This document shows positions 2,176 through 62,087 of a stretch of DNA of 64,000 nt, piece by piece. How positions within the stretch are numbered: the stretch's first letter is position 1; each line of letters begins with the position of its first letter. Both the position numbers and the translations under genes were made by a program. The notes beneath the pieces are model-generated. The model was not told where the DNA came from, did not search any database, and saw only the letters and a program-made list of their open reading frames with translations. This stretch comes from Armatimonadota bacterium (GTDB lineage: Bacteria; Armatimonadota; SYMT01). The stretch is taken from the NCBI GenBank assembly GCA_041690135.1, contig JAWLHY010000001.1, forward strand, positions 672,001-736,000, given 5' to 3'.

Positions 2176-3597
2176 GTGGCACTCCAACAACGCCAGACGC
2201 AGGCACAGCGACTTCAGCAGCGAGCCGACCCGCAAATGCTCCTGACCAACCGGCTGCTCCAGATGTCGGTCCTCGAATTGCAGCAGTGCGTTAGCCAGGA
2301 AGTCGCGGATAATCCGGCGCTGGAATGGCCGGAGGAGTTGTGCGCCGCTTGCCGCAGCGTGGGTCGTTCCTGTCTCGATTGCCCGCTCAACCCCGGAGCG
2401 GGGCCACGGCCGGCGGTGTGGGACCATGATTTCGCTCCCTGGGAAGAAGGATCCAACCCGGCCGATCCCTATGAATATGTTTCGGTCCAGGAAACGCTGG
2501 CGCACCATCTCCGTGCCCAACTGTTTGCCGGGGTCGCGGAATGTGATCAAGGCGTGGGACAGTACCTGATCGACAGCATCGACAGTGATGGTTATCTTCG
2601 CAGTGACGTCGAAGAGGCAGCGCGAGTCCTGGAGGTGCATCCCGCGGAAGTCGAACGCGTCTTGAAAGTGATCCAGACCTTTGAGCCCACCGGGGTGGGG
2701 GCGCGAAACCTCCGGGAGTGCTTGCTCATTCAAACCGAAGCCCGGGCGAGCGATCCGGCTACTCCCGTCGTGGTGCTCCCCATCCTTACCGCCTACTGGA
2801 AGGAACTGTCCACCGGCAAATGGAGGGCGATCGCACGGGGCTTGCGGGTGAGTCAGGCCGAGGTCGAGGGGTCGATCGGATGGCTGCGCCGCAATCTCAG
2901 TCCCTACCCGGGTCTCTGCTTTCGTCCGCATTGGGAGAGAACTCCCCAGGGATCCGCGGCACCGGCCCGGCCGGACGCGATCGTGTCGTTCGATGAGGGA
3001 GGAAGACTCCGGCTCCGCCTACCCGGCGAGGAGGGCCCTGGTCCAGTCCTTAATTCCGACTACTCCCGCACCCTGGTGAGCATCCGGGAGAAGCATGGCA
3101 CGCAGCCCTCTCCGGAGGAGCGAAACGTTGAGGAGCTTGTTGTCCGGGCACAGATGCTCCTCAAGGGCCTACACGACCGCGTCTGTCTCCTGCGCAGGGT
3201 CGGCGAATGCCTGCTGGAGGAACAGGAGCAGTACCTGCGAAGTGAGCGAGAAGAGGATTTGCGACCCCTAACCCAGGCACAACTCGCCGCCTTTATCCAG
3301 GTACACGAGAGCACCGTGAGCCGGGCCGTCGCGGAGAAGTTTCTCCAACTGCCCAGCGGACGCGTGCTGCCGTTGAGCTTCTTCTTCGACCGGGCCGTCT
3401 CTTATCGCCGTCTCGTGGCAAACGTGGTCGCCGGCGAGGACCCCGCCGCGCCCTACAGCGATCAGGAGATCTCCGATCGCCTGCGCCGGGAGGGGGTATT
3501 CATTGCGCGGCGGACCGTGATGAAATACCGCGAGGAACTGGGCATCCTCTCCTCGCGGCAGCGGGCACGCACCCCTGGATCCTGTGGGACAAGTTGA
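2176..3597 (+). CDS. rpoN: RNA polymerase sigma-54 factor
   Basis: Gln/Leu-rich region I, NPALE, IQTFEPTGVGARNLRECL, HESTVSRAV helix-turn-helix, RpoN box ARRTVMKYRE. Confidence 0.95.
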   Translation: MALQQRQTQAQRLQQRADPQMLLTNRLLQMSVLELQQCVSQEVADNPALEWPEELCAACRSVGRSCLDCPLNPGAGPRPAVWDHDFAPWEEGSNPADPYEYVSVQETLAHHLRAQLFAGVAECDQGVGQYLIDSIDSDGYLRSDVEEAARVLEVHPAEVERVLKVIQTFEPTGVGARNLRECLLIQTEARASDPATPVVVLPILTAYWKELSTGKWRAIARGLRVSQAEVEGSIGWLRRNLSPYPGLCFRPHWERTPQGSAAPARPDAIVSFDEGGRLRLRLPGEEGPGPVLNSDYSRTLVSIREKHGTQPSPEERNVEELVVRAQMLLKGLHDRVCLLRRVGECLLEEQEQYLRSEREEDLRPLTQAQLAAFIQVHESTVSRAVAEKFLQLPSGRVLPLSFFFDRAVSYRRLVANVVAGEDPAAPYSDQEISDRLRREGVFIARRTVMKYREELGILSSRQRARTPGSCGTS

Positions 3598-49246: not shown

Positions 49247-49442
49247 ATTCCCGCCTCTCCCCTCTCAATCATCACGGAGCCCAGTTCTCTGAAGAGTCGG
49301 TTCCTGCCTCCCGGGGGCACCTCACGCACGTTCGACGGCAGCGCGGCGGAGATTATCATTACCATTCCCTCTCCGGGCGGACCGACTATCTGGATGGTGG
49401 GTGCCGGAGCGGTGTCCCCTGTTCAGTTCGGCGGGAGGGAGC

Positions 49443-50393
49443 ATGTCGGATCTGGTGCGGAGAGAGCGGGCGCAGGTCGGCGGTGGGGAGCTGCTGAGGC
49501 TCTTGCTGGCGGATAAGCGGAGCGAGGCCACGAAACGGGCTTATGCGGCGGACCTGCGGGACTTCTTCGGCGAGGAGCTGAACCCGCGGGAGGTGGAACG
49601 GTTCGTCTCGCAGCCGCCTGCGGAGATCGCGCGGGTGCTGACCACCTATAAGGGCGAGCTTCTCGCCCGCGGGCTAACCGAGGCGACGGTCAACCGGCGG
49701 CTCGCGGCGATCCGGTCGCTGCTCAAGTTCTGCTACCGCCTGGGATGGTCGCAGACCGACGGGCGGTCCCTGGTTGAGGGTGAGCGGGTGGTGGCGTACC
49801 GCGACACGCGCGGCGTAACACCGGAGATCGTGAAAAAGCTGTTCACCGCGGCGAACACGGGAGACCTGACCGGCCTGCGCGACGTGGCGCTCCTCCGCCT
49901 GCTGTGCGAGAACGCGCTTCGCCGGGCCGAGGTGTGCGCCCTGAACGTGGAGGACTTCCGTCCGGAAGAGCGTCGCCTCAACATCCTGGGCAAGGGCAAG
50001 GGGACCCAGAAGGAGCCGGAAACACTCTCCGAGCGGGCCATCGAGGCGCTGAACCGCTACCTGGCGGTGGCCGGCCACGGCGGGAACCCGGAGGCGCCGC
50101 TGCTGCGGAACGTCGATCCTCGGCCGGAGTACAACGGTCTGCGGCTCACGGGCGACGGGATCTACCACATCGTCCGCGACCTGGGCGCGCGCGTCGGCGT
50201 CCCCAGTCTCACACCGCACAAGCTACGCCACACGGCCATCACCATCGCGCTGGACCTGACGGATGGGAATGTCCGCGCGGTGCGGGACCTCTCGCGCCAC
50301 GCCCGCCTGGAGACCCTCCAGCGGTATGACGACAACCGAAGGAACTTCCAGGGAAGCGTTTCGGAGAAGCTCTCCAACCTGTTCGACGAATAG
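49443..50393 (+). CDS. Tyrosine recombinase/integrase (XerC-like, N-terminal SAM-like domain)
   Basis: KRSEATKRAY, ATVNRRLAAIRS; catalytic R (LRRAE), K (GKG), HxxR (HKLRH), H (SRHA), Y (LQRY); RBS GGAGGGAG. Confidence 0.95.
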   Translation: MSDLVRRERAQVGGGELLRLLLADKRSEATKRAYAADLRDFFGEELNPREVERFVSQPPAEIARVLTTYKGELLARGLTEATVNRRLAAIRSLLKFCYRLGWSQTDGRSLVEGERVVAYRDTRGVTPEIVKKLFTAANTGDLTGLRDVALLRLLCENALRRAEVCALNVEDFRPEERRLNILGKGKGTQKEPETLSERAIEALNRYLAVAGHGGNPEAPLLRNVDPRPEYNGLRLTGDGIYHIVRDLGARVGVPSLTPHKLRHTAITIALDLTDGNVRAVRDLSRHARLETLQRYDDNRRNFQGSVSEKLSNLFDE

Positions 50394-50472
50394 CCGGAAC
50401 TTCCGATCCTGGCAAGACGACAGATGAGAGTGAGCGGGCGTGCAGTCCGGTAGTCCCGCACTGGGGTCCTCC

Positions 50473-51741
50473 ATGTCCAAACCGACAGCCGGGCACTTCC
50501 CCTTCCCGATCTCTCGCCCCACACTCCTACAGCAACTCGGAACCCTCGGCGACCTGCTTGAGAACCCGGTTCGAGACCGCGAGCTTCGCAGCCGCATGCG
50601 TGGAGGCCGCACCTACTGGATCACAGGCGGCTACGCTACGGCAGTCAGTGTCTTCGTTCTCTTCCTCTACGGATGGCTTCCGCACCAGTACCAGGGCGTG
50701 GAGATGAAAGCGGCCGCTCCCGGAATTGCGCAAAGCCTCTGGGTATGGGGCTGTGCGCTTCAGGCGGTGTTGCTGAGTTTCTTCGTTCCCGCCTTCACCG
50801 CGGGCAGCATCGCTCGCGAGCGCGAGCGTGAGATGCTGGACCTGCTGTTCCTCACGCGCCTGAGCGCGCTGCGAATCTGCTACGGAAAGCTCGCCGCCGG
50901 GGTTGGGCACGGTTTCATCCTGTTCCTGGCGTCCCTACCACCCCTCGCCCTGTCGTTCACCCTGGGCTCGGTGAGCCCCGTCCAGGTCATCCAGTCGACG
51001 GCCGTCCTGGCGACCTGCGTGTGCTTCGCCGGCGCGTTGGGCCTCTGCCTCTCGTGTATCGCACCCAGAACGGTGACGGCCTCGACCTGGGCGTACCTTC
51101 TCCTGGGCTTCGGGTTGGTGGGCTTGCCCCTGGTCCTGGTGCACTTCGCCAGCGGGCCGTGGACTTCGCAAGTGTCCGATGCCGAAATCGCCGGGATGAT
51201 CATTGCATGCCTGGCGGGAACGTTCCCCCTGGCAGTGCTCCTGGGCGGCATCGGGCTGCGCGTGCGAGAGGGTTGGAAGGAGCGAGAGACGGGAAAGGAA
51301 TGCTCCGCCACGCGGGCCGATTGGCTCCTCTTTTGTGGCTTCTCCTGGTGCGTGACGGCGCTCTCGCTTTGGCTCCCCGGGATGAGCGAACTCGTCCAGA
51401 GCGGCCGCTACCTGCTGGTGCTCCACCCCATTACGGTCCTGCTCTCGACTTCCCCCGGGCCGCAGAGCACAGGGGTCGATCCGCTCCAGGGCCTTGTATT
51501 CTGCGGAATGGCCAGTGCGAGCAGCGTGCGGTCCAGCCCAACGATGATCCAGTTACTGCCGGACTGGCTGCGTGAGCCCGTGGACTCCCTCTTCTGGACT
51601 CTGGGCGACATCGCAAACTACACCGGCTGGAATTCGCTTGGGGACCACCTCTGGTGGATCTACTGCATCATCTTTCTCGGAGCAGCGGCGTGGCTCTTTC
51701 TCATCACGGCCATGCGGGTGAAGCGGCTGCGCGAGGGGTAG
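50473..51741 (+). CDS. ABC-2 type permease-like membrane protein
   Basis: NPVRDRELRSRMRG, PAFTAGSIAREREREMLDLL..T.L, GKL; multiple TM segments. Confidence 0.85.
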   Translation: MSKPTAGHFPFPISRPTLLQQLGTLGDLLENPVRDRELRSRMRGGRTYWITGGYATAVSVFVLFLYGWLPHQYQGVEMKAAAPGIAQSLWVWGCALQAVLLSFFVPAFTAGSIAREREREMLDLLFLTRLSALRICYGKLAAGVGHGFILFLASLPPLALSFTLGSVSPVQVIQSTAVLATCVCFAGALGLCLSCIAPRTVTASTWAYLLLGFGLVGLPLVLVHFASGPWTSQVSDAEIAGMIIACLAGTFPLAVLLGGIGLRVREGWKERETGKECSATRADWLLFCGFSWCVTALSLWLPGMSELVQSGRYLLVLHPITVLLSTSPGPQSTGVDPLQGLVFCGMASASSVRSSPTMIQLLPDWLREPVDSLFWTLGDIANYTGWNSLGDHLWWIYCIIFLGAAAWLFLITAMRVKRLREG

Positions 51742-51862: not shown

Positions 51863-51931
51863 CTACAAGACTCACACGCGGAATCGCCGGACGGGCGAGA
51901 TCCGGGTGCGGGACCTTCGGAGATCGATTTG

Positions 51932-53743
51932 ATGACCCAGGAACAGGTCCTCCGGGACAAAGTGGGCGAGGTGCGCACCCGCATCCGCCTGCTGGTCACC
52001 CAGCAATGGATCTGCACGGCCCTCACCGTGTCGCTCCTGACCGGTCTGCTGCTGGTGCTGGCGACCAAGATGCGCTGGTGGACGGATGCCGTCGACTACC
52101 TCTGGGCGCTGGTCTTGCTGGGCGCGGCCGCGGGGTTCGCGATCGGGTGGACCCGCAGCATCACCCCGCAGGTGGCCGCGCAGGTCGCGGATGAGAAGGG
52201 CGGCCTGAAGGAGCGCCTCTCCACCGCGGTGGAGCTGGCCGCCTCCCCCACCCGCAGCCAGATCGCGGAGGTCCAGATCTCCGATGCCGCCGAGCACGCG
52301 CGGCAGTTGAATGTTTCCCAGGTGTTGCCCTGGAAGGCTCCGAAGCAGCTCCGCTACGTGGGCGCCGCCGCCGTGGTGCTGGCCGCCGCCGTGTTCGTGC
52401 CGGAGCTCCCGATCTTCCACAGCAAGCAGGAGCGCCTCGACGCCCAGGTGATGAAGAATGAGGGCACCCGCCTTCAGAAAGTCGCCAAGCAAGTCGAAGC
52501 CAAGCTGAAGGAGAAGAAAGAGAAAGAGTCCGACGAAGAGATCCTCCGCCGGGTCGCCAAGGAGATGCAGAAGCTGGGGAAAGACCAGGCGAAGTCTCGC
52601 GTCTCCAAGAAGCAGGCCATGCTGGCGATGAACGATCTGCAGAAACAGATCAAGGAAGAGGAGAACAAGCTCGCCGGGGGGCCCGCCGGGAAGTCGATGG
52701 AGAAGGTGACGGCCGACCTGAAGGCCGCCGCCGACAAGCAGACCCAGCAGGGCAGCAACGACGCCGGCAAGACGCTGAAGCAGATGGCCGAGAACCTGGA
52801 CAAGCGCGACTTCGATGCCGCCAAGCAGCAGTTGGAGGACCTCGCCAAGAATATCCAGTCCGGCAGCCTGAAACCGGAAGAGGCCAAGCAACTGGCGGAA
52901 ACCATGGAGCAGATGTCCAAGGCCATGGCCGGCTCCAACCTGGACCAGGCCTCGCAGGAGCTCAAGGACGCGGCCTCCAAGCTGCAGGACGCGGTGAAGC
53001 AGGCGGAACAGATACAGCAAAAGATGCAGCAGGCGAAGACCGACGCGGAACGCCAGCAGCTTCAGGAACAGATGCAGCAGGCCCTGAACCAGGGGATGCA
53101 GCAGGCGGCGGCGCAGTGCAGTAAGGCGGGCGGCACATGACAGTCCGCCGGAGGGCGTCAGCGGTCCGCTGACCAACTAGCAGAAATGTCGAAGGCGCTC
53201 CGGTCCGCCCAGCAGTCGCTGCAGCAGGCCGGCCAGGAAACGGCCCAGGGCGGTGGCAGCCAGGGCGACCAGAAGAAAGACGGCCAGGAAGGGCAGTCCG
53301 GCTCCCGAGGCCAGCAGGGCGAACAGGGTGACCAGGCGGGCGAGGGTCAGAATGAGGCCAGCGAAGCGGAGATGGGCGCGGAGTTCGGCGCTTCCCAGTC
53401 CGCTTCCCAGAGCAGCAGTGACTCCGGGGACCCCGGCGCCTCGCAGCGCCGGGGCGGTGGACGCGGCAATGCCGGCCGCGGTGTCGGCGGGAACGTCGGC
53501 GCTCAGCAGCCGCTTCCGGGCAAGAAGAACGACAAGCTCGTTCGCGGCACGGTCAATGATAAGGGCAAGAAGCTGAGTCGCTCCTACATGGGCACGCCGG
53601 ACCCCACGCAGGACCGGGCCGCCTACTACAGCGTGGTTCCCGATAAGGTGAAGGCGGCCGAAGCTTCGCTGAACCGGGAAGAGATCCCCACGGGATACAA
53701 GAAGGCCGTCCGCGACTACTTCAACTCGATACAGCCTCGATAA
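51932..53743 (+). CDS. Membrane-anchored coiled-coil protein (DUF4175-like) with in-frame UGA; probable selenoprotein
   Basis: ORFs 51929-53140 and 53186-53743 share a frame with only TGA 53138-53140 between; N-terminal TMs, LKERLSTAVE, Q/G-rich linker and C-terminal IPTGYKKAVRDYF make one typical protein. Confidence 0.7.
53157..53173 (+). promoter_or_regulatory. Putative bacterial SECIS hairpin
   Basis: GTCAGCG-GTC-CGCTGAC, perfect stem with a GU-containing apical loop ~22-23 nt after the UGA. Confidence 0.6.
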
Positions 53744-53756
53744 GGAAACTCCAGTC

Positions 53757-54803
53757 TTGTCTTCAACGGAAGCCCTCCCACCCAACGGCGCCGCCCGGGC
53801 GCAGGTCGAAGCACGCGCCCGGGAGTTCATGGACCGCTACCGCAGCGTGCGGCAGGAGATCGCGAAGGTCGTCGTCGGCCAGGATGCCGTCGTGGAGTCG
53901 GTGCTCGTCGCCGTCCTGTGTGGCGGTCACGCCCTGCTGGAGGGGGTGCCCGGGCTCGGCAAGACGCTGCTGGTGCGGACCATCAGCCAGGCGCTGAACC
54001 TGGAGTTCAACCGCATCCAGTTCACTCCCGACCTGATGCCGGCGGACATCACCGGCACGAATATTGTGGTGGAAGACCCCTCCGGCCGGCGGGTCTTCCA
54101 GTTCCAGCCCGGTCCGGTGTTCGCCAATATCGTGCTGGCGGACGAAATCAACCGGGCCACGCCCAAGACCCAGTCCGCTCTGCTGGAAGCCATGCAGGAA
54201 CATTCCGTAACGGTGGCCGGCACCATCCACCGGCTGGATGAGCCGTTCTTTGTGCTCGCCACGCAAAACCCGATCGAGCAGGAGGGGACCTATCCCCTAC
54301 CCGAAGCGCAGCTCGACCGGTTCCTGTTCAAGGTTCTGGTCCCGCAACCCCGGCTGGAGGACCTGGCCGCCATCGTGGACCGCACCACCGGCACCCAGGC
54401 CAACCATGCCAGTGCCGTGCTGAACGGCGAGCAGATCATGGCGATGCAGCGCCTCGCGCGCGAGATCGTGGTGGAAGGCCAGGTGCGGGACTACGCCCTG
54501 AAGATCGTGCTGGGGACCCACCCGGATAGCGAGTACGCCCCCGACGCCGTGAAGCGGTTCGTCCGAGTCGGCTCCAGCCCTCGCGGCGCCCAGGCGATCA
54601 TCCTGGCGGCCAAGGTCCACGCGCTGCTCCAGGGTCGCTACAACGTTGCCTATGACGACATCGACCACGTCGCCACGCCGGCACTGCGGCATCGCCTCAT
54701 CCTCAACTTCGAGGGGGAAGCGGAAGGGGTGACCACGGACAGCGTGGTGGCGGACATCCGGAGCCGGGTGCGGGAAGCGGCGCGGCCGCAAGTGGGAGTG
54801 TAA
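53757..54803 (+). CDS. moxR: MoxR family AAA+ ATPase
   Basis: EGVPGLGKT, RIQFTPDLMPADITG, LADEINRATPKTQSALLEAMQE, ATQNPIEQEGTYPLPEAQLDRF. Confidence 0.96.
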   Translation: MSSTEALPPNGAARAQVEARAREFMDRYRSVRQEIAKVVVGQDAVVESVLVAVLCGGHALLEGVPGLGKTLLVRTISQALNLEFNRIQFTPDLMPADITGTNIVVEDPSGRRVFQFQPGPVFANIVLADEINRATPKTQSALLEAMQEHSVTVAGTIHRLDEPFFVLATQNPIEQEGTYPLPEAQLDRFLFKVLVPQPRLEDLAAIVDRTTGTQANHASAVLNGEQIMAMQRLAREIVVEGQVRDYALKIVLGTHPDSEYAPDAVKRFVRVGSSPRGAQAIILAAKVHALLQGRYNVAYDDIDHVATPALRHRLILNFEGEAEGVTTDSVVADIRSRVREAARPQVGV

Positions 54804-54903: not shown

Positions 54904-56082
54904 ATGAGCCCGAGGAACCCCGCAAATCCGGCCGGTAAGTTCCCGCTCGCCACCTACTGCCTCATCCTGGCGCAGTTGGTGGTGTGGATCGTCGTGCGCC
55001 GCTTCTTGCTGCAGGGCGGAGAGTGGACGCAGTTCGCCCTCTACCCGGGCGCTCCGGATGAACTGGGGCTGATCATCTCCCCCTTCATCCACATCGAGCC
55101 GGTCCACCTGGGGATCAACCTGGCCGTGCTCTGGCTGTTCGGCACCAGCCTGGAGCGGACGGTCGGCTCGTTCCAGTTCCTCTTCTTCTACCTGGGCGCC
55201 GCCTGGTTTTCCTCGCTCATGCAATGGGCGGTCTCCACGGCGTTCCAGGTCCATCCCAACCTGGCGGCCAGCAATGCGGCCGTGGGCTCTTCGGGAGCAG
55301 TCGCGGGGATCATGGCCGCGCACCTGGTGCGCTTTCCGCGCGCCCGCCTGAGCCTGCCCTTCAACCGCTCGTTTACGGTGCCCGCCACCCCCATCCTCAC
55401 GCTGTGGGTGGTCTATACCCTTTTCCGCGCGATCATCACCACGGTCGTGGGCTACTCCGAGGGGATCGGGCACTGGGCCCATTTCGGCGGGTTCGTGTTC
55501 GGCCTCGCCATGGCGCAGTTGATGGGCCTCCATCACCTCGCCCGGCGCGAGATGCTGGCGCAAACGGCAGAGGAGGCGTACGCCAGCGACAACCTGCTGG
55601 TGGCTGCCCGGGCCTGGTCCGCGCTGCTGGCCATGCGGCCATCGGACACCCATACCCGTACCGCCCTGATCACGACCCGCCTCGCCATGAGCGATGTTCC
55701 GGGCGCCCGGCGGCTGGCCCGCGAGGGCCTGGAAGCGCTGGTAAAAGCGAACGACCGCCCCACGGCCATCGAGTTGTACGAAGAGTACGTGGAGTTGGTG
55801 CCGGAGTTGGACCTTCCCCCCGGCATCCGGTATCGCCTGGGCTGTTGGCTGGCGGATGCGGGGCGTGACGAACTGGCGTTCCGCGCGCTGTGGGAGAGCG
55901 TCCGCGAAGACGGCGCCACGCCCTCTTCCGCGGCGGCGCTCTACCGCGCGGGCAAGCTGGCGCTGGAGCGCCTCCAGAGCCCCCGCCACGCGCGCCAGGC
56001 CTGGAACTGCCTCCTGGAGCAGTTCCCCGATTCGCCCTGGTGCGACGCGGCCCGCGATAGCCTGCGCCACTTGCCGGCTTAA
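54904..56082 (+). CDS. Rhomboid family intramembrane serine protease with C-terminal TPR-like domain
   Basis: HLGIN, VGSSGAVAG, WAHFGG; helical C-terminus ending FPDSPW. Confidence 0.9.
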   Translation: MSPRNPANPAGKFPLATYCLILAQLVVWIVVRRFLLQGGEWTQFALYPGAPDELGLIISPFIHIEPVHLGINLAVLWLFGTSLERTVGSFQFLFFYLGAAWFSSLMQWAVSTAFQVHPNLAASNAAVGSSGAVAGIMAAHLVRFPRARLSLPFNRSFTVPATPILTLWVVYTLFRAIITTVVGYSEGIGHWAHFGGFVFGLAMAQLMGLHHLARREMLAQTAEEAYASDNLLVAARAWSALLAMRPSDTHTRTALITTRLAMSDVPGARRLAREGLEALVKANDRPTAIELYEEYVELVPELDLPPGIRYRLGCWLADAGRDELAFRALWESVREDGATPSSAAALYRAGKLALERLQSPRHARQAWNCLLEQFPDSPWCDAARDSLRHLPA

Positions 56083-58159: not shown

Positions 58160-59542
58160 ATGCTCTCGATCTCTCGGTGTCCCGGTACTTTTGGACGACG
58201 CGCCTTCGTGCGGTCGGGGATTCTTGGGCTCTGGAGCCTGGGCCTGACGGACCTGTTCCGAATGGAGGCCTCCGCCGCGCAAGCTCCTGCTTCCGGGCGG
58301 GTGCTCTCCCCCACCGGCGCCACCGGGAAATCGATCATCGTTCTCTGGTTGTGGGGCGGTCCCAGCCACATGGAAACGTTCGATCTGAAGCCGGATGCGC
58401 CCGCGGAGTACCGGGGCGAGTTCAAGCCGATCAAGACCAACGTGCCGGGTATCGAGATCTGCGAGCACCTTCCGCGCCTCGCGAAACTGGCCGACAAGTA
58501 CGCGCTGATCCGCTCCTGTCACCACGACAGCACCGGGCACGTTAACAGTACCCACACGGTGATGACGGCCTTCCAGGGCGAGGAGGTGGAAACGCCTCCC
58601 TACAAACCGAAGTACCCGGACGTGTGGGCGGTGATCAACCATGCGCAGGGGGACTGGTCTCGGCGCATACCCCCTTACGTGGCGCTGCCGCGCACCCGGT
58701 ACGATGGGGCCGCCTACCTGGGCTCCGCCGCGGACCCCCTCATTGTGAAGGGCGACCCGAACCAGAAGGGGTTCCGCGTGGACGACCTCTGCCCGCGGAC
58801 GGAACTCCAGGCTCGGATCTCGCGCCGGGCCACCTTGCTCGAGCGGTTCGATGCTACGCGCCGGGACGTGCACACCGCCACAGAAGCGACTTCCCTCGAT
58901 GCCTTCCAGCAGCGCGCCCTTTCCGTGTTGACCAGCGACGCTGCCGCCCGGGCGTTCGACATCGATCAGGAGGATCCGAAGCTGCGGGACCTGTACGGCC
59001 GGCACGAGGTGGGCCAGCGGTGCTTGCTCGCGCGCCGCCTGGTAGAGGCCGGGGCGCGCATCGTGACGATCGACTTCCCCTGCGTGCCGGGTCAGAAGGC
59101 CTTTAGCTGGGACGACCACGCCAGCGTGTGGAATATCTTCGAGCAGATGAAGATCCGCCTGCCCGTTCTCGACCAGGTGGTCTCCGCCCTGATCACGGAT
59201 CTATACGACCGCGGCCTGGACAAAGATACGATGCTGGTGGTGATGGGGGAAATGGGCCGTACGCCGAAGCTGAGCAACCATAACGGCCAGCCCGGTCGCG
59301 AGCATTGGGGGCGGGCCATGTCGGTGCTCCTTGCCGGGGGCGGTCTGCCGATGGGACAGGTGATCGGCCAGACCACGGATCGGGGTGAGGAACCGAGCGA
59401 ACGGGCTCTTAAGCCCACCGATCTGCAGGCGACGTGGTACCGCTACTTTGGCATTCCGCTGGATACGCAGTATCTCGACCGCACCGGGCGTCCCATTCCG
59501 ATCCTGCCGGACGGGGAGCCGATCCGGGAGTTGATCTCCTGA
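58160..59542 (+). CDS. DUF1501 domain protein
   Basis: GRRAFV, WLWGGPSHMETFDLKP, CLLARRLVEAG, WDDH, GEMGRTP, GREHW. Confidence 0.93.
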   Translation: MLSISRCPGTFGRRAFVRSGILGLWSLGLTDLFRMEASAAQAPASGRVLSPTGATGKSIIVLWLWGGPSHMETFDLKPDAPAEYRGEFKPIKTNVPGIEICEHLPRLAKLADKYALIRSCHHDSTGHVNSTHTVMTAFQGEEVETPPYKPKYPDVWAVINHAQGDWSRRIPPYVALPRTRYDGAAYLGSAADPLIVKGDPNQKGFRVDDLCPRTELQARISRRATLLERFDATRRDVHTATEATSLDAFQQRALSVLTSDAAARAFDIDQEDPKLRDLYGRHEVGQRCLLARRLVEAGARIVTIDFPCVPGQKAFSWDDHASVWNIFEQMKIRLPVLDQVVSALITDLYDRGLDKDTMLVVMGEMGRTPKLSNHNGQPGREHWGRAMSVLLAGGGLPMGQVIGQTTDRGEEPSERALKPTDLQATWYRYFGIPLDTQYLDRTGRPIPILPDGEPIRELIS

Positions 59543-60647: not shown

Positions 60648-62087
60648 ATGCCAGTTGCGCGCCGCTCTCCCGCAGGTTTTCTCTCCCTCGGTCTCGTGCT
60701 TGCCGCCTCCGGATTGCTCTGCCGGGCCGGCTTTACGCAAGGGAAGGCGGCCGAGCGCCCGCCGAACGTGGTCCTCATCTTCGCGGATGACCTGGGCTAC
60801 GCGGACGTAGGGTGTTTCGGCGCCCAGGGATATAAAACGCCCCACCTGGACCGGCTGGCGAAGCAGGGAATGAAGTTCACCGACTTCTATGTGAGCCAGG
60901 CGGTCTGCTCCGCTTCGCGCGCCGCGCTCCTCACGGGCTGCTACTCCAACCGGGTCGGGATCCTGGGCGCACTTGGGCCCGGCGCGAAGACCGGCCTCAA
61001 TCCCGCCGAGACCACCCTCGCGGAGATGCTGCGGGACCGGGGGTATGCCACCGCCATGTTCGGGAAGTGGCACCTGGGCGACCACGAGAGTCTCCTGCCG
61101 CGGAAGCACGGCTTCGACGAGTACTTCGGCATCCCCTACTCCAACGACATGTGGCCGAACCACCCGACGAACAAGCGGTACCCGCCGCTTCCGCTGATCG
61201 AGAACGAGACGGTGCTCGAGCACAACCCGGACCAGACCCAGCTCACCACCGCAATCACAGAGCGCTCCGTCAAGTTCATCAACCGCAATCGCGAGCGGCC
61301 GTTCTTCCTCTACGTCCCCCACCCCATGCCGCATGTGCCGCTCTTCGTCTCCAAGAAGCACGCGGGCAAGACCAAGCGCGGGCTGTTCGGCGACGTGATC
61401 GAGGAGATCGACTGGTCCGTCGGCCAGATCACGGAGGCGCTCGAGAAGAACGGTCTCACGCGCAACACGCTGGTGATCTTCACCTCGGACAACGGACCGT
61501 GGCTCTCCTATGGTGACCATGCCGGTTCCGCGGGTCCCCTTCGGGAAGGCAAGGGCACCTCGTTTGAAGGCGGCGTGCGGGTCCCGGCCATCTTCCGTTG
61601 GCCCGGGCGGATCAAGCCCGGAACCGTCAGCCGGGAGCCGGCCATGACGATCGACGTGCTGCCCACCGTGGCCGGATTTACCGGGGCGTCCCTACCGAAG
61701 GACCGAACGATCGACGGGAAGGACCTGCGTCCCCTGCTCTCCCAGGAGAAGGGCGCGCGGAGCCCGCACGAAGCGCTTTACATCTACTGGGGCGGCCATC
61801 TGGATGCCGTGCGGAGCGGGAAGTGGAAGCTCCACCTTCCCCACGAATACCGCAGCCTGAAGGGCCAGCCCGGCTCCGGCGGACTGCCGGGTCCCTACGT
61901 TCAGAAGAAGATCGAACTCTCCCTGTTCGACCTGGAAGTCGACCCGGGAGAAACCAAAGATGTTGCCGCGGAGCATCCGGGCGTCGTCCAGCACATGCAG
62001 CAACTCGTCGAGCGCGCCCGCCAGGACCTGGGCGACACCGGCACCGCCCGCAAAGGCGCCGGCGTCCGTCCCCCCGCCCGTCTCTGA
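60648..62087 (+). CDS. Sulfatase (formylglycine-dependent arylsulfatase family)
   Basis: PNVVLIFADDLGY, CSASRAALLTG, GKWHLG, FTSDNGP, EGGVRVP. Confidence 0.96.
   Translation: MPVARRSPAGFLSLGLVLAASGLLCRAGFTQGKAAERPPNVVLIFADDLGYADVGCFGAQGYKTPHLDRLAKQGMKFTDFYVSQAVCSASRAALLTGCYSNRVGILGALGPGAKTGLNPAETTLAEMLRDRGYATAMFGKWHLGDHESLLPRKHGFDEYFGIPYSNDMWPNHPTNKRYPPLPLIENETVLEHNPDQTQLTTAITERSVKFINRNRERPFFLYVPHPMPHVPLFVSKKHAGKTKRGLFGDVIEEIDWSVGQITEALEKNGLTRNTLVIFTSDNGPWLSYGDHAGSAGPLREGKGTSFEGGVRVPAIFRWPGRIKPGTVSREPAMTIDVLPTVAGFTGASLPKDRTIDGKDLRPLLSQEKGARSPHEALYIYWGGHLDAVRSGKWKLHLPHEYRSLKGQPGSGGLPGPYVQKKIELSLFDLEVDPGETKDVAAEHPGVVQHMQQLVERARQDLGDTGTARKGAGVRPPARL

Follow-up and report, generated by a model that had tools for sequence, protein, structure and literature searches.

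Does the TGA codon that separates two open reading frames (ORFs) upstream of a moxR gene end a protein, or does it encode selenocysteine (Sec, U) within a longer one? The question is raised by a locus in a 64,000-nucleotide (nt) stretch of DNA from an Armatimonadota bacterium (contig JAWLHY010000001.1 of assembly GCA_041690135.1, positions 672,001 to 736,000), here called the window, whose own numbering is used throughout. The initial annotation had joined the two ORFs into one selenoprotein gene, with a hairpin just 3′ of the UGA as its Sec insertion sequence (SECIS). Our analyses of the sequence make it very probable that UGA 53138-53140 encodes Sec in one 603-residue membrane-anchored protein. 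This reading is supported because TGA and Cys alternate at one position among relatives, the hairpin covaries, the selenocysteine synthase SelA accompanies the TGA form and the genome holds the Sec machinery (selA, selB, selC and selD); an independent DNA contig contains the TGA too. The elements at the centre of the argument are the following.

51932 to 53743, + strand: very probable single selenoprotein gene of 603 residues, with Sec as residue 403 and stop TAA at 53741-53743 (from the frame, the translation and full-length homologues)
53117 to 53119, + strand: Cys396, at −7 from Sec; candidate partner thiol in the window's sub-lineage (from the translation and close U-forms)
53138 to 53140, + strand: TGA very probably read as Sec (U403), motif K-A-G-G-T-U-Q-S-A-G (from TGA or Cys in the relatives' column and an independent DNA contig)
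53157 to 53173, + strand: predicted SECIS upper stem-loop, GTCAGCG-GTC-CGCTGAC, with a 7-bp stem and the loop GUC at 53164-53166 (from covariation and published constraints)

Reading frame and TGA/Cys alternation

The two ORFs (51929-53140 and 53186-53743) lie in a common frame, as seen in the ORF list and in the translation of 51932-53743. When the frame is read through, TGA 53138-53140 is its sole internal stop, at residue 403 of 603, in agreement with the approximately 603-residue product and Sec at about residue 403 that had been proposed. The joined product reads ...QQAAAQ-C-SKAGGT-U-QSAGGRQRSADQLAEMSK... around the TGA and ends with ...YKKAVRDYFNSIQPR, followed by TAA. The gene starts at ATG 51932, with GGAG at 51919-51922, 9 nt 5′ of it; TTG 51929 is a possible alternative start. 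The local sequence 5′ of ATG 53186 contains no GGAGG-like site, which bears out the earlier remark that this ATG lacks an obvious ribosome-binding site. Apart from C28 in the first membrane segment, Cys396 is the only Cys of the window protein. Two minus-strand ORFs, 51872-53176 (434 residues) and 53177-53830 (217 residues), overlap the gene; the likeliest explanation is that they are shadow frames in a coding region rich in G+C.

When the joined protein was searched in six frames against 41 related genomes, 26 of them gave matches, many with exactly one internal TGA. In a MAFFT alignment of 20 homologues, TGA (12 sequences) and Cys (3 sequences) occupy the same column of the motif AGGT-[U/C]-x-S-x-G, and in a cleaner 14-sequence alignment, A1, the Sec column is invariant when U is written as C. 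Of 401 genomes from the phylum that were searched with a profile, 230 contain the family. From these, 60 extra loci were hand-picked, 36 flagged with TGA and 24 without, to give 85 loci in total; proportions among them are therefore not family frequencies, and related genomes are not independent samples. TGA lies inside a GG[TG]-U-type motif at 49 of the 85 loci, in genomes from 20 family-level groups of Armatimonadota. The profile alignment places 29 of these 49 in the column, the rest being misaligned in a variable helical region with the motif still present. The same TGA and motif recur in further metagenome contigs. Cys takes the place of Sec at 11 loci, often as CxxC (for example, AGQT-C-QSC, VGQ-C-QGCC and QA-C-KSC), so that the TGA/Cys alternation looked for in relatives is indeed found. 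The consensus over 48 sites is [KQ]-A-G-G-[TG]-U-x-[SG]-x-G, a count from which the search pattern leaves out L008, L049, L061 and L074.

Among public proteins, P0007, P0008 and P0009 are full-length Cys forms with 49-53% identity, and distant full-length homologues (~640 residues), whose metagenome genomes bear the labels Verrucomicrobia and Aggregatilineales, either carry Cys or lack the motif; the homologues seen in the phyla Verrucomicrobiota and Chloroflexota are thus of the Cys or motif-less kind. Three of the Verrucomicrobia-labelled proteins (P0061, P0070 and P0084, ~640 residues) carry a Cys-rich C-I-G-x-C-Q-x-W-x-x-C-K after the position of the Sec motif, which hints that a thiol-based site may be a feature of the wider superfamily. 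The closest relatives with named records are metagenome-assembled genomes labelled Armatimonadota (1), Actinomycetota or Actinomycetes (2) and "uncultured bacterium" (2).

A tree was built by a quick method from the membrane domain and C-terminal module of hand-chosen rows, with the Sec region excluded; L026 and L057 sit on long branches. U, Cys and motif-less forms are interleaved in it, and its well-supported branches force at least 11 changes of U state, gains and losses not being separable by the tree. The Cys forms L007, L079 and L012/L013 fall beside or inside U clades. Three loci, L051 (genome G385), L065 (G154) and L066 (G181), have two motif TGAs per gene. In L051, which reads GGT-U-NSPGGT-U, the TGAs are 7 residues apart, and the lone hairpin after the second UGA would have to serve both. 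L065 and L066 read GGT-U-EGSGRGHRPHFGFG-U (GGT-U-...GFG-U), and in L065 there is one hairpin per UGA.

These data bear on the possibility that the TGA is a real stop, giving proteins of 402 and 185 residues, the second made by re-initiation at ATG 53186, with the hairpin serving as a coupling, pausing or attenuation signal. Public gene callers agree with it: in a collection of 5.8 billion proteins we found ~45 relatives of 400-407 residues (67% query coverage) that end at the TGA. Named entries are called "hypothetical protein", with the one exception of P0046 (336 residues), whose name is taken from an SbcCD ATPase subunit; all of them lack a Pfam domain. An ATG does lie 45 nt downstream of the TGA. 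Set against this, homologues with Cys in the Sec column are single uninterrupted ORFs, and the C-terminal 200 residues of the window protein align in frame with 13 homologues. Moreover, the 15 codons between the TGA and ATG 53186 are conserved in frame as protein (x-S-x-G....SAD.L..MS), and the ATG has no ribosome-binding site before it. With the hairpin and SelA distributions given below, a real stop is very unlikely.

Hairpin, selenocysteine machinery and independent sequence

The perfect hairpin that the initial annotation had described is present at 53157-53173. The stem begins 16 nt and the loop 23 nt 3′ of the UGA, with a predicted energy of −9.2 kcal/mol for the stem-loop. We analysed covariation in 13 close U-forms, from 6 nt 5′ to 54 nt 3′ of the TGA. 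Standard pairs are formed in 94.5% of the cells of the 7-bp stem, compared with 13-50% in controls with the 3′ partner moved along by 1-3 columns. Compensatory changes occur in five of the seven stem pairs. Specifically, the outermost pair is G-C, A-U or C-G, and the innermost alternates between G-C and A-U, an Arg/Gln codon change being coupled to a synonymous change of a Ser codon. The covariation score was reached by 0 of 500 shuffles, and RNAalifold gives the same 7-bp stem. Thus the hairpin is conserved and covarying, as had been asked of it. Distant groups have other stems at the same place (GCGCGC-UGGAU-GCGCGC, UCGCACU-CGGGC-AGUGCGG, GUCUUCGC-UGGAU-GCGAAGAC and CGGAGCC-GGC-GGCUCCG), with loops that start 18-26 nt after the UGA across the family's sites. 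The UGA itself may be enclosed, at 53132-53146, by a small second helix of GG.CA / UGCC type, in which alignment columns 1-2 and 4-5 pair with 12-15. It is without covariation because its columns are fixed by the GGT-U-xS codons, and the 13-sequence alignment speaks neither for nor against it.

Published constraints for bacterial SECIS elements, as given in the legend of Fig. 2 of PMC13188914, are a loop of 3-9 nt with G in loop positions 1-2, a stem of 4-16 bp, an energy of −7.5 kcal/mol or below and a distance of 16-37 nt from the UGA. The window element satisfies the constraints of that legend (7 bp, GUC, 23 nt, −9.2 kcal/mol), as do 43 of 48 sites defined by the protein motif alone. In the same genes, they are satisfied at 4 of 30 terminal TGA stops and at 3595 of 45986 other codons (7.8%). 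A stricter test, with a stem of at least 7 bp, was passed at 43 of 50 sites (2 of the 50 being spurious post-stop TGAs), 0 of 30 terminal stops and 5.3% of other codons. The scarcity of such hairpins at the terminal TGAs under either test counts against a real stop at 53138-53140. A scan of 52900-53400 against Rfam gave no SECIS match, its sole match being a chance microRNA on the opposite strand.

The Sec machinery, which the initial annotation had made a point to confirm, is complete. The window's genome (G000; 9.1 Mb, 25 contigs, 97% complete) encodes selA (481 bits), selB (383.6 bits against a cut-off of 242), selD (369.6 bits) and tRNA-Sec (selC, anticodon tca), the last beside selA and selD. 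Its selD has an in-frame TGA of its own, in the context KCGG-U-ASK, followed ~25 nt after the UGA by an 8-bp hairpin with a short loop. The cluster of selA, selD and tRNA-Sec lies at C1:1149693-1152363 (loci L001 and L036), and selB lies apart, at C8:51343-53220.

With presence of SelA scored at E ≤ 1e-40, 218 of the 401 phylum genomes (54%) have it. A hand cross-tabulation found SelA in 49 of 49 TGA-form genomes and, among the fetched genomes without the TGA form, in 23 of 36, the other 13 being negative; we attach no probability to this co-occurrence because the genomes are related and so not independent. That every TGA-form genome has SelA argues further against a real stop. An altered genetic code, with TGA as a sense codon everywhere, was rejected: 30 homologous genes end in TGA, and TGA is therefore an ordinary stop in these organisms.

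Selenium-free read-through of the UGA was also weighed. Downstream structures are able to stimulate stop-codon read-through, and the hairpin might in this way promote insertion of a near-cognate Trp, Cys or Arg, with short and long forms made side by side. We give this only a slight chance. Every one of the 49 genomes in which the TGA form was found is SelA-positive, compared with 54% of the phylum sample, and the alternative residue among relatives is Cys, the signature of Sec sites. In addition, the hairpins have the geometry and the G-containing loops expected of a SelB-type SECIS from that legend, and they resemble the element of the genome's own selD.

Independent sequence was found for the site. 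Over 53073-53223 the window is matched exactly by a 151-nt contig that comes from a soil-metagenome DNA run, so the TGA is not an assembly error and the read support that had been called for exists. A 232-nt contig from a rhizosphere RNA library spans 52964-53194 with 10 differences, all upstream of 53102; contigs from an RNA library are no proof of transcription. Together these contigs place both the TGA and the hairpin in independent data. Sequencing runs cover small shares of the window, the best being the soil DNA run, with 0.31 of the sampled words. The closest metagenome relative, L103 (a 1.5-kb contig, protein 78% identical), has lost one G from the hairpin loop (GTCAGCG-TC-CGCTGAC), so that the frame changes beyond the Sec codon; this deletion is either a sequencing error or the mark of a decaying copy. 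Errors or decay thus do occur in the gene, yet a nonsense mutation, pseudogene or sequencing error as the origin of the window's TGA has next to no probability and is effectively refuted by the comparative sequence data, since the same TGA and motif recur in the 49 genomes, 20 family-level groups and further metagenome contigs, the sequence 3′ of the TGA is conserved in frame and the independent DNA contig is identical across the site.

Besides the hand-picking of loci and the relatedness of genomes noted above, several observations weigh against Sec at UGA 53138-53140 or limit its importance. Folding of 53130-53200 (71 nt) against shuffles gave z = −0.75, so stability is not unusual and the significance of the hairpin rests on the comparison with relatives. 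A loop of 3 nt, as found here, is the smallest that the published model allows, and five of the 48 motif sites do not satisfy the constraints of that model's legend. A stem of at least 7 bp is kept at 2 of 12 Cys-form sites (L013 and L092), and in L012, the closest Cys form, 6 bp of the hairpin of the close group survive as a relic; a TGA is thus not required for the hairpin to persist. Finally, the motif is absent from 25 of the 85 loci, so Sec or Cys is not essential to the family's basic role. A further Cys form, L079, is nested among ten U-forms of one genus and has kept the peptide ...AGACALDARQW with its stem down to 5 bp; hence the hairpin is not needed to encode the protein.

Protein architecture, partner cysteines and the MoxR neighbourhood

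The architecture of the window protein is as follows.

52007 to 52414, + strand: membrane domain with hydrophobic segments at residues ~26-45, 57-73 and 142-161 (from hydropathy, charge counts in 14 of 14 sequences, conservation and model helices)
52187 to 52237, + strand: residues 86-102 of loop 74-141, with the best-conserved motif, AD-x-[KR]-x-GLKERLSTA-x-EL (from conservation in A1)
52415 to 53254, + strand: long all-helical domain, residues ~162-441, with U403 inside helix 371-441 (from AlphaFold2 on A1)
53267 to 53635, + strand: Gly/Gln/Ser-rich low-complexity stretch, residues 446-568, predicted to be disordered (predicted local distance difference test, pLDDT, below 50 for 446-542 and 545-568)
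53588 to 53740, + strand: conserved C-terminal module, ...MGTPDP...YY.V.P....AAE.SL.REEIP.GYKK.V..YF.SI.. (from conservation and the model)

The AlphaFold2 model, made with alignment A1 and with U403 modelled as Cys, is all-helical (mean pLDDT of 76.3, predicted template modelling score of 0.48), and the means of 10-residue blocks are 73-97 over residues 161-440. In the C-terminal module, P556, A576, E577, P586, V593, Y596 and F597 are invariant in the 14 sequences, and the model has helices at 570-582 and 587-600. A Foldseek search of the model against the Protein Data Bank (PDB) gave no match at E ≤ 0.001, the best rows being designed helical bundles and transporters.

The N-terminus has a net positive charge in 13 of the 14 aligned sequences and is even in L006; the first loop is short with few positive charges, and loop 74-141 is Lys/Arg-rich. 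These charges suggest that the N-terminus and loop 74-141 are cytoplasmic and that, because of the positive-inside rule, the 440-residue C-terminal part lies outside. The initial annotation had described a soluble coiled coil around the Sec. The long helical domain does appear in the model, but it more probably lies on the membrane's outer face.

A Cys or a second Sec occurs within 12 residues of the Sec at 39 of the 48 sites, with partner Cys residues at +3 (8 sites), +6 (10), +10 (11) and −7 (4). The 14 close U-forms have Cys at −7 in five cases, Cys at +3 (U-x-x-C) in eight, neither in one and both in none. The C-x6-U pair first noticed in the window is thus real there, with Cys396, but it is no constant of the family, in which the partner stands at +3, +6, +10 or −7. 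Most of these spacings would lie on one face of a helix, which suggests a Sec-Cys pair that corresponds to CxxC in the Cys forms and would be either a selenenylsulfide or a metal site.

Two neighbouring genes flank the selenoprotein gene.

50440 to 51741, + strand: ABC-2-type permease-like membrane protein, upstream neighbour (from an ABC2_membrane_2-like match)
53757 to 54803, + strand: moxR (AAA_3 ATPase), 13 nt after the selenoprotein stop (from PF07726, 213.5 bits)

At 48 of 85 loci, as judged from the short flanks available, the next gene downstream is a moxR homologue in the same orientation, and an ABC-2-type permease-like gene lies upstream at 10 of the other 84 loci, to the extent that the flanks cover it. 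The genome has five AAA_3 (MoxR) paralogues (C14:181617, C6:264471, C5:126464, C13:225456 and C1:725928), three of which are beside or near a DUF58 gene; the paralogue adjoining the selenoprotein has no DUF58 match on its contig. Farther out, a XerC/XerD-like tyrosine recombinase is encoded at 49401-50393, a rhomboid protease with a weak TPR tail follows moxR at 54904-56082 (+), and a DUF1501 protein and a sulfatase lie beyond it at 58160-59542 (+) and 60648-62087 (+).

We propose that UGA 53138-53140 would be decoded as Sec by the canonical bacterial route. By analogy, SelB carrying Sec-tRNA(Sec) would bind the stem-loop at 53157-53173, 16 nt downstream of the UGA, and would deliver Sec as the ribosome reaches the codon. 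Sec403 would then sit in the [KQ]AGG[TG]-U-x[SG]xG motif of the long helical domain, usually near one Cys, and the two might act as a redox-active selenenylsulfide or as a metal-binding pair, in either case as the counterpart of CxxC in the Cys forms. The positive-inside rule would have the domain facing outward, and the protein may work with the adjacent MoxR AAA+ ATPase, possibly through the conserved loop between membrane segments 2 and 3.

We infer function, topology and MoxR partnership with much lower confidence than the decoding of the UGA. A partner Cys is missing near the Sec at 9 of the 48 sites, and in the close group L011 has neither partner Cys; the evidence for the topology is the charge rule only, and that for the MoxR partnership is gene order only. 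We therefore regard as tentative, and on balance doubtful, the idea that the family is a non-oxidoreductase class of selenoprotein, a membrane-anchored helical sensor or scaffold with an outward Sec/Cys pair for redox or metal sensing and MoxR readout via GLKERLSTA. Were it true, it would be the first link of selenium with MoxR systems and a main reason why many Armatimonadota keep the Sec machinery. The family offers a conserved candidate partner, with an obvious reactive centre, for the poorly understood MoxR ATPases; U-to-C and C-to-S changes in it would be a mutational handle on the role of this MoxR paralogue.

Known families and systems

The window protein matches no Pfam family at E ≤ 0.01 and no NCBIfam family at E ≤ 0.01, all selenoprotein models included; with five distant homologues added, Pfam at E ≤ 1 gave scattered sub-threshold matches only. 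Public databases carry the family as a 400-residue hypothetical protein plus an orphan 185-residue ORF, and once the Sec codon is recognised, the gene models of no fewer than 49 genomes from the 20 family-level groups are corrected. The prokaryotic selenoproteome thereby gains one family and, because that family is a large membrane protein with a helical domain, the structural contexts of Sec are widened. Its many independent SECIS variants at fixed spacing are training data for bacterial SECIS models, which are acknowledged in the cited literature to be incomplete.

A 2026 review lists 119 prokaryotic selenoprotein families or subfamilies, mostly thioredoxin-like or oxidoreductase-related (Table 1 of PMC13188914); that table, in full, contains neither a GGT-U motif nor any family that is membrane-bound, helical or linked to MoxR. 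BSepDB (2026, PMC13326102) counts 111 known families, and its main text does not mention Armatimonadota, although its supplementary tables could list further families. Our literature searches turned up no link of selenocysteine with Armatimonadota or with MoxR.

The nearest likeness is to selenoproteins with an intragenic SECIS, of the fdhF/FdhA and SelD type, in which the UGA is followed by a stem-loop with a small G-containing loop 16-37 nt downstream (range from the Fig. 2 legend of PMC13188914). As in these, there are Cys-form homologues and a dependence on selA, selB, selC and selD, all four of which are present here, and the genome's own selD has a similar 8-bp stem and short loop. Unlike them, the window protein is not an oxidoreductase or of thioredoxin-like fold; it is a 600-residue protein with three membrane segments, a long helical domain and a disordered Gly/Gln-rich region. 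The earlier view that it differs from oxidoreductase folds agrees with the all-helical model and the PDB search.

Selenoproteins with UxxC or CxxU redox motifs offer a second parallel, since many family members have U-x-x-C and the Cys forms have CxxC. Indeed, L006 and L009 read exactly U-G-S-C, as in the "UGSC-containing protein" named in Table 1 of PMC13188914 (NF041046), whose model nevertheless gave no match at E ≤ 0.01. The window protein itself differs in having no Cys at +3, and the family motif lies in a predicted helix rather than at the N-terminus of a thioredoxin-fold helix.

The remaining comparisons concern the MoxR neighbour and the general build of the protein. MoxR AAA+ systems with DUF58 or VWA partners include Bat/aerotolerance-type operons, RavA-ViaA and CbbQ-CbbO. 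The selenoprotein gene resembles such partners in its place directly upstream of an AAA_3 moxR, as counted above, and differs from them in that Pfam finds no VWA or DUF58 domain in the window protein. DUF4175 proteins have N-terminal membrane segments and a long low-complexity or helical C-terminal part. The initial annotation had called the window protein DUF4175-like; the likeness is one of general look only, and the assignment was dropped, neither the window protein nor the five distant homologues having a Pfam match to DUF4175 (PF13779) even at E ≤ 1. Set beside these systems, the decoding mechanism is the ordinary bacterial one, and the protein family that uses it is new and outside the current catalogues.

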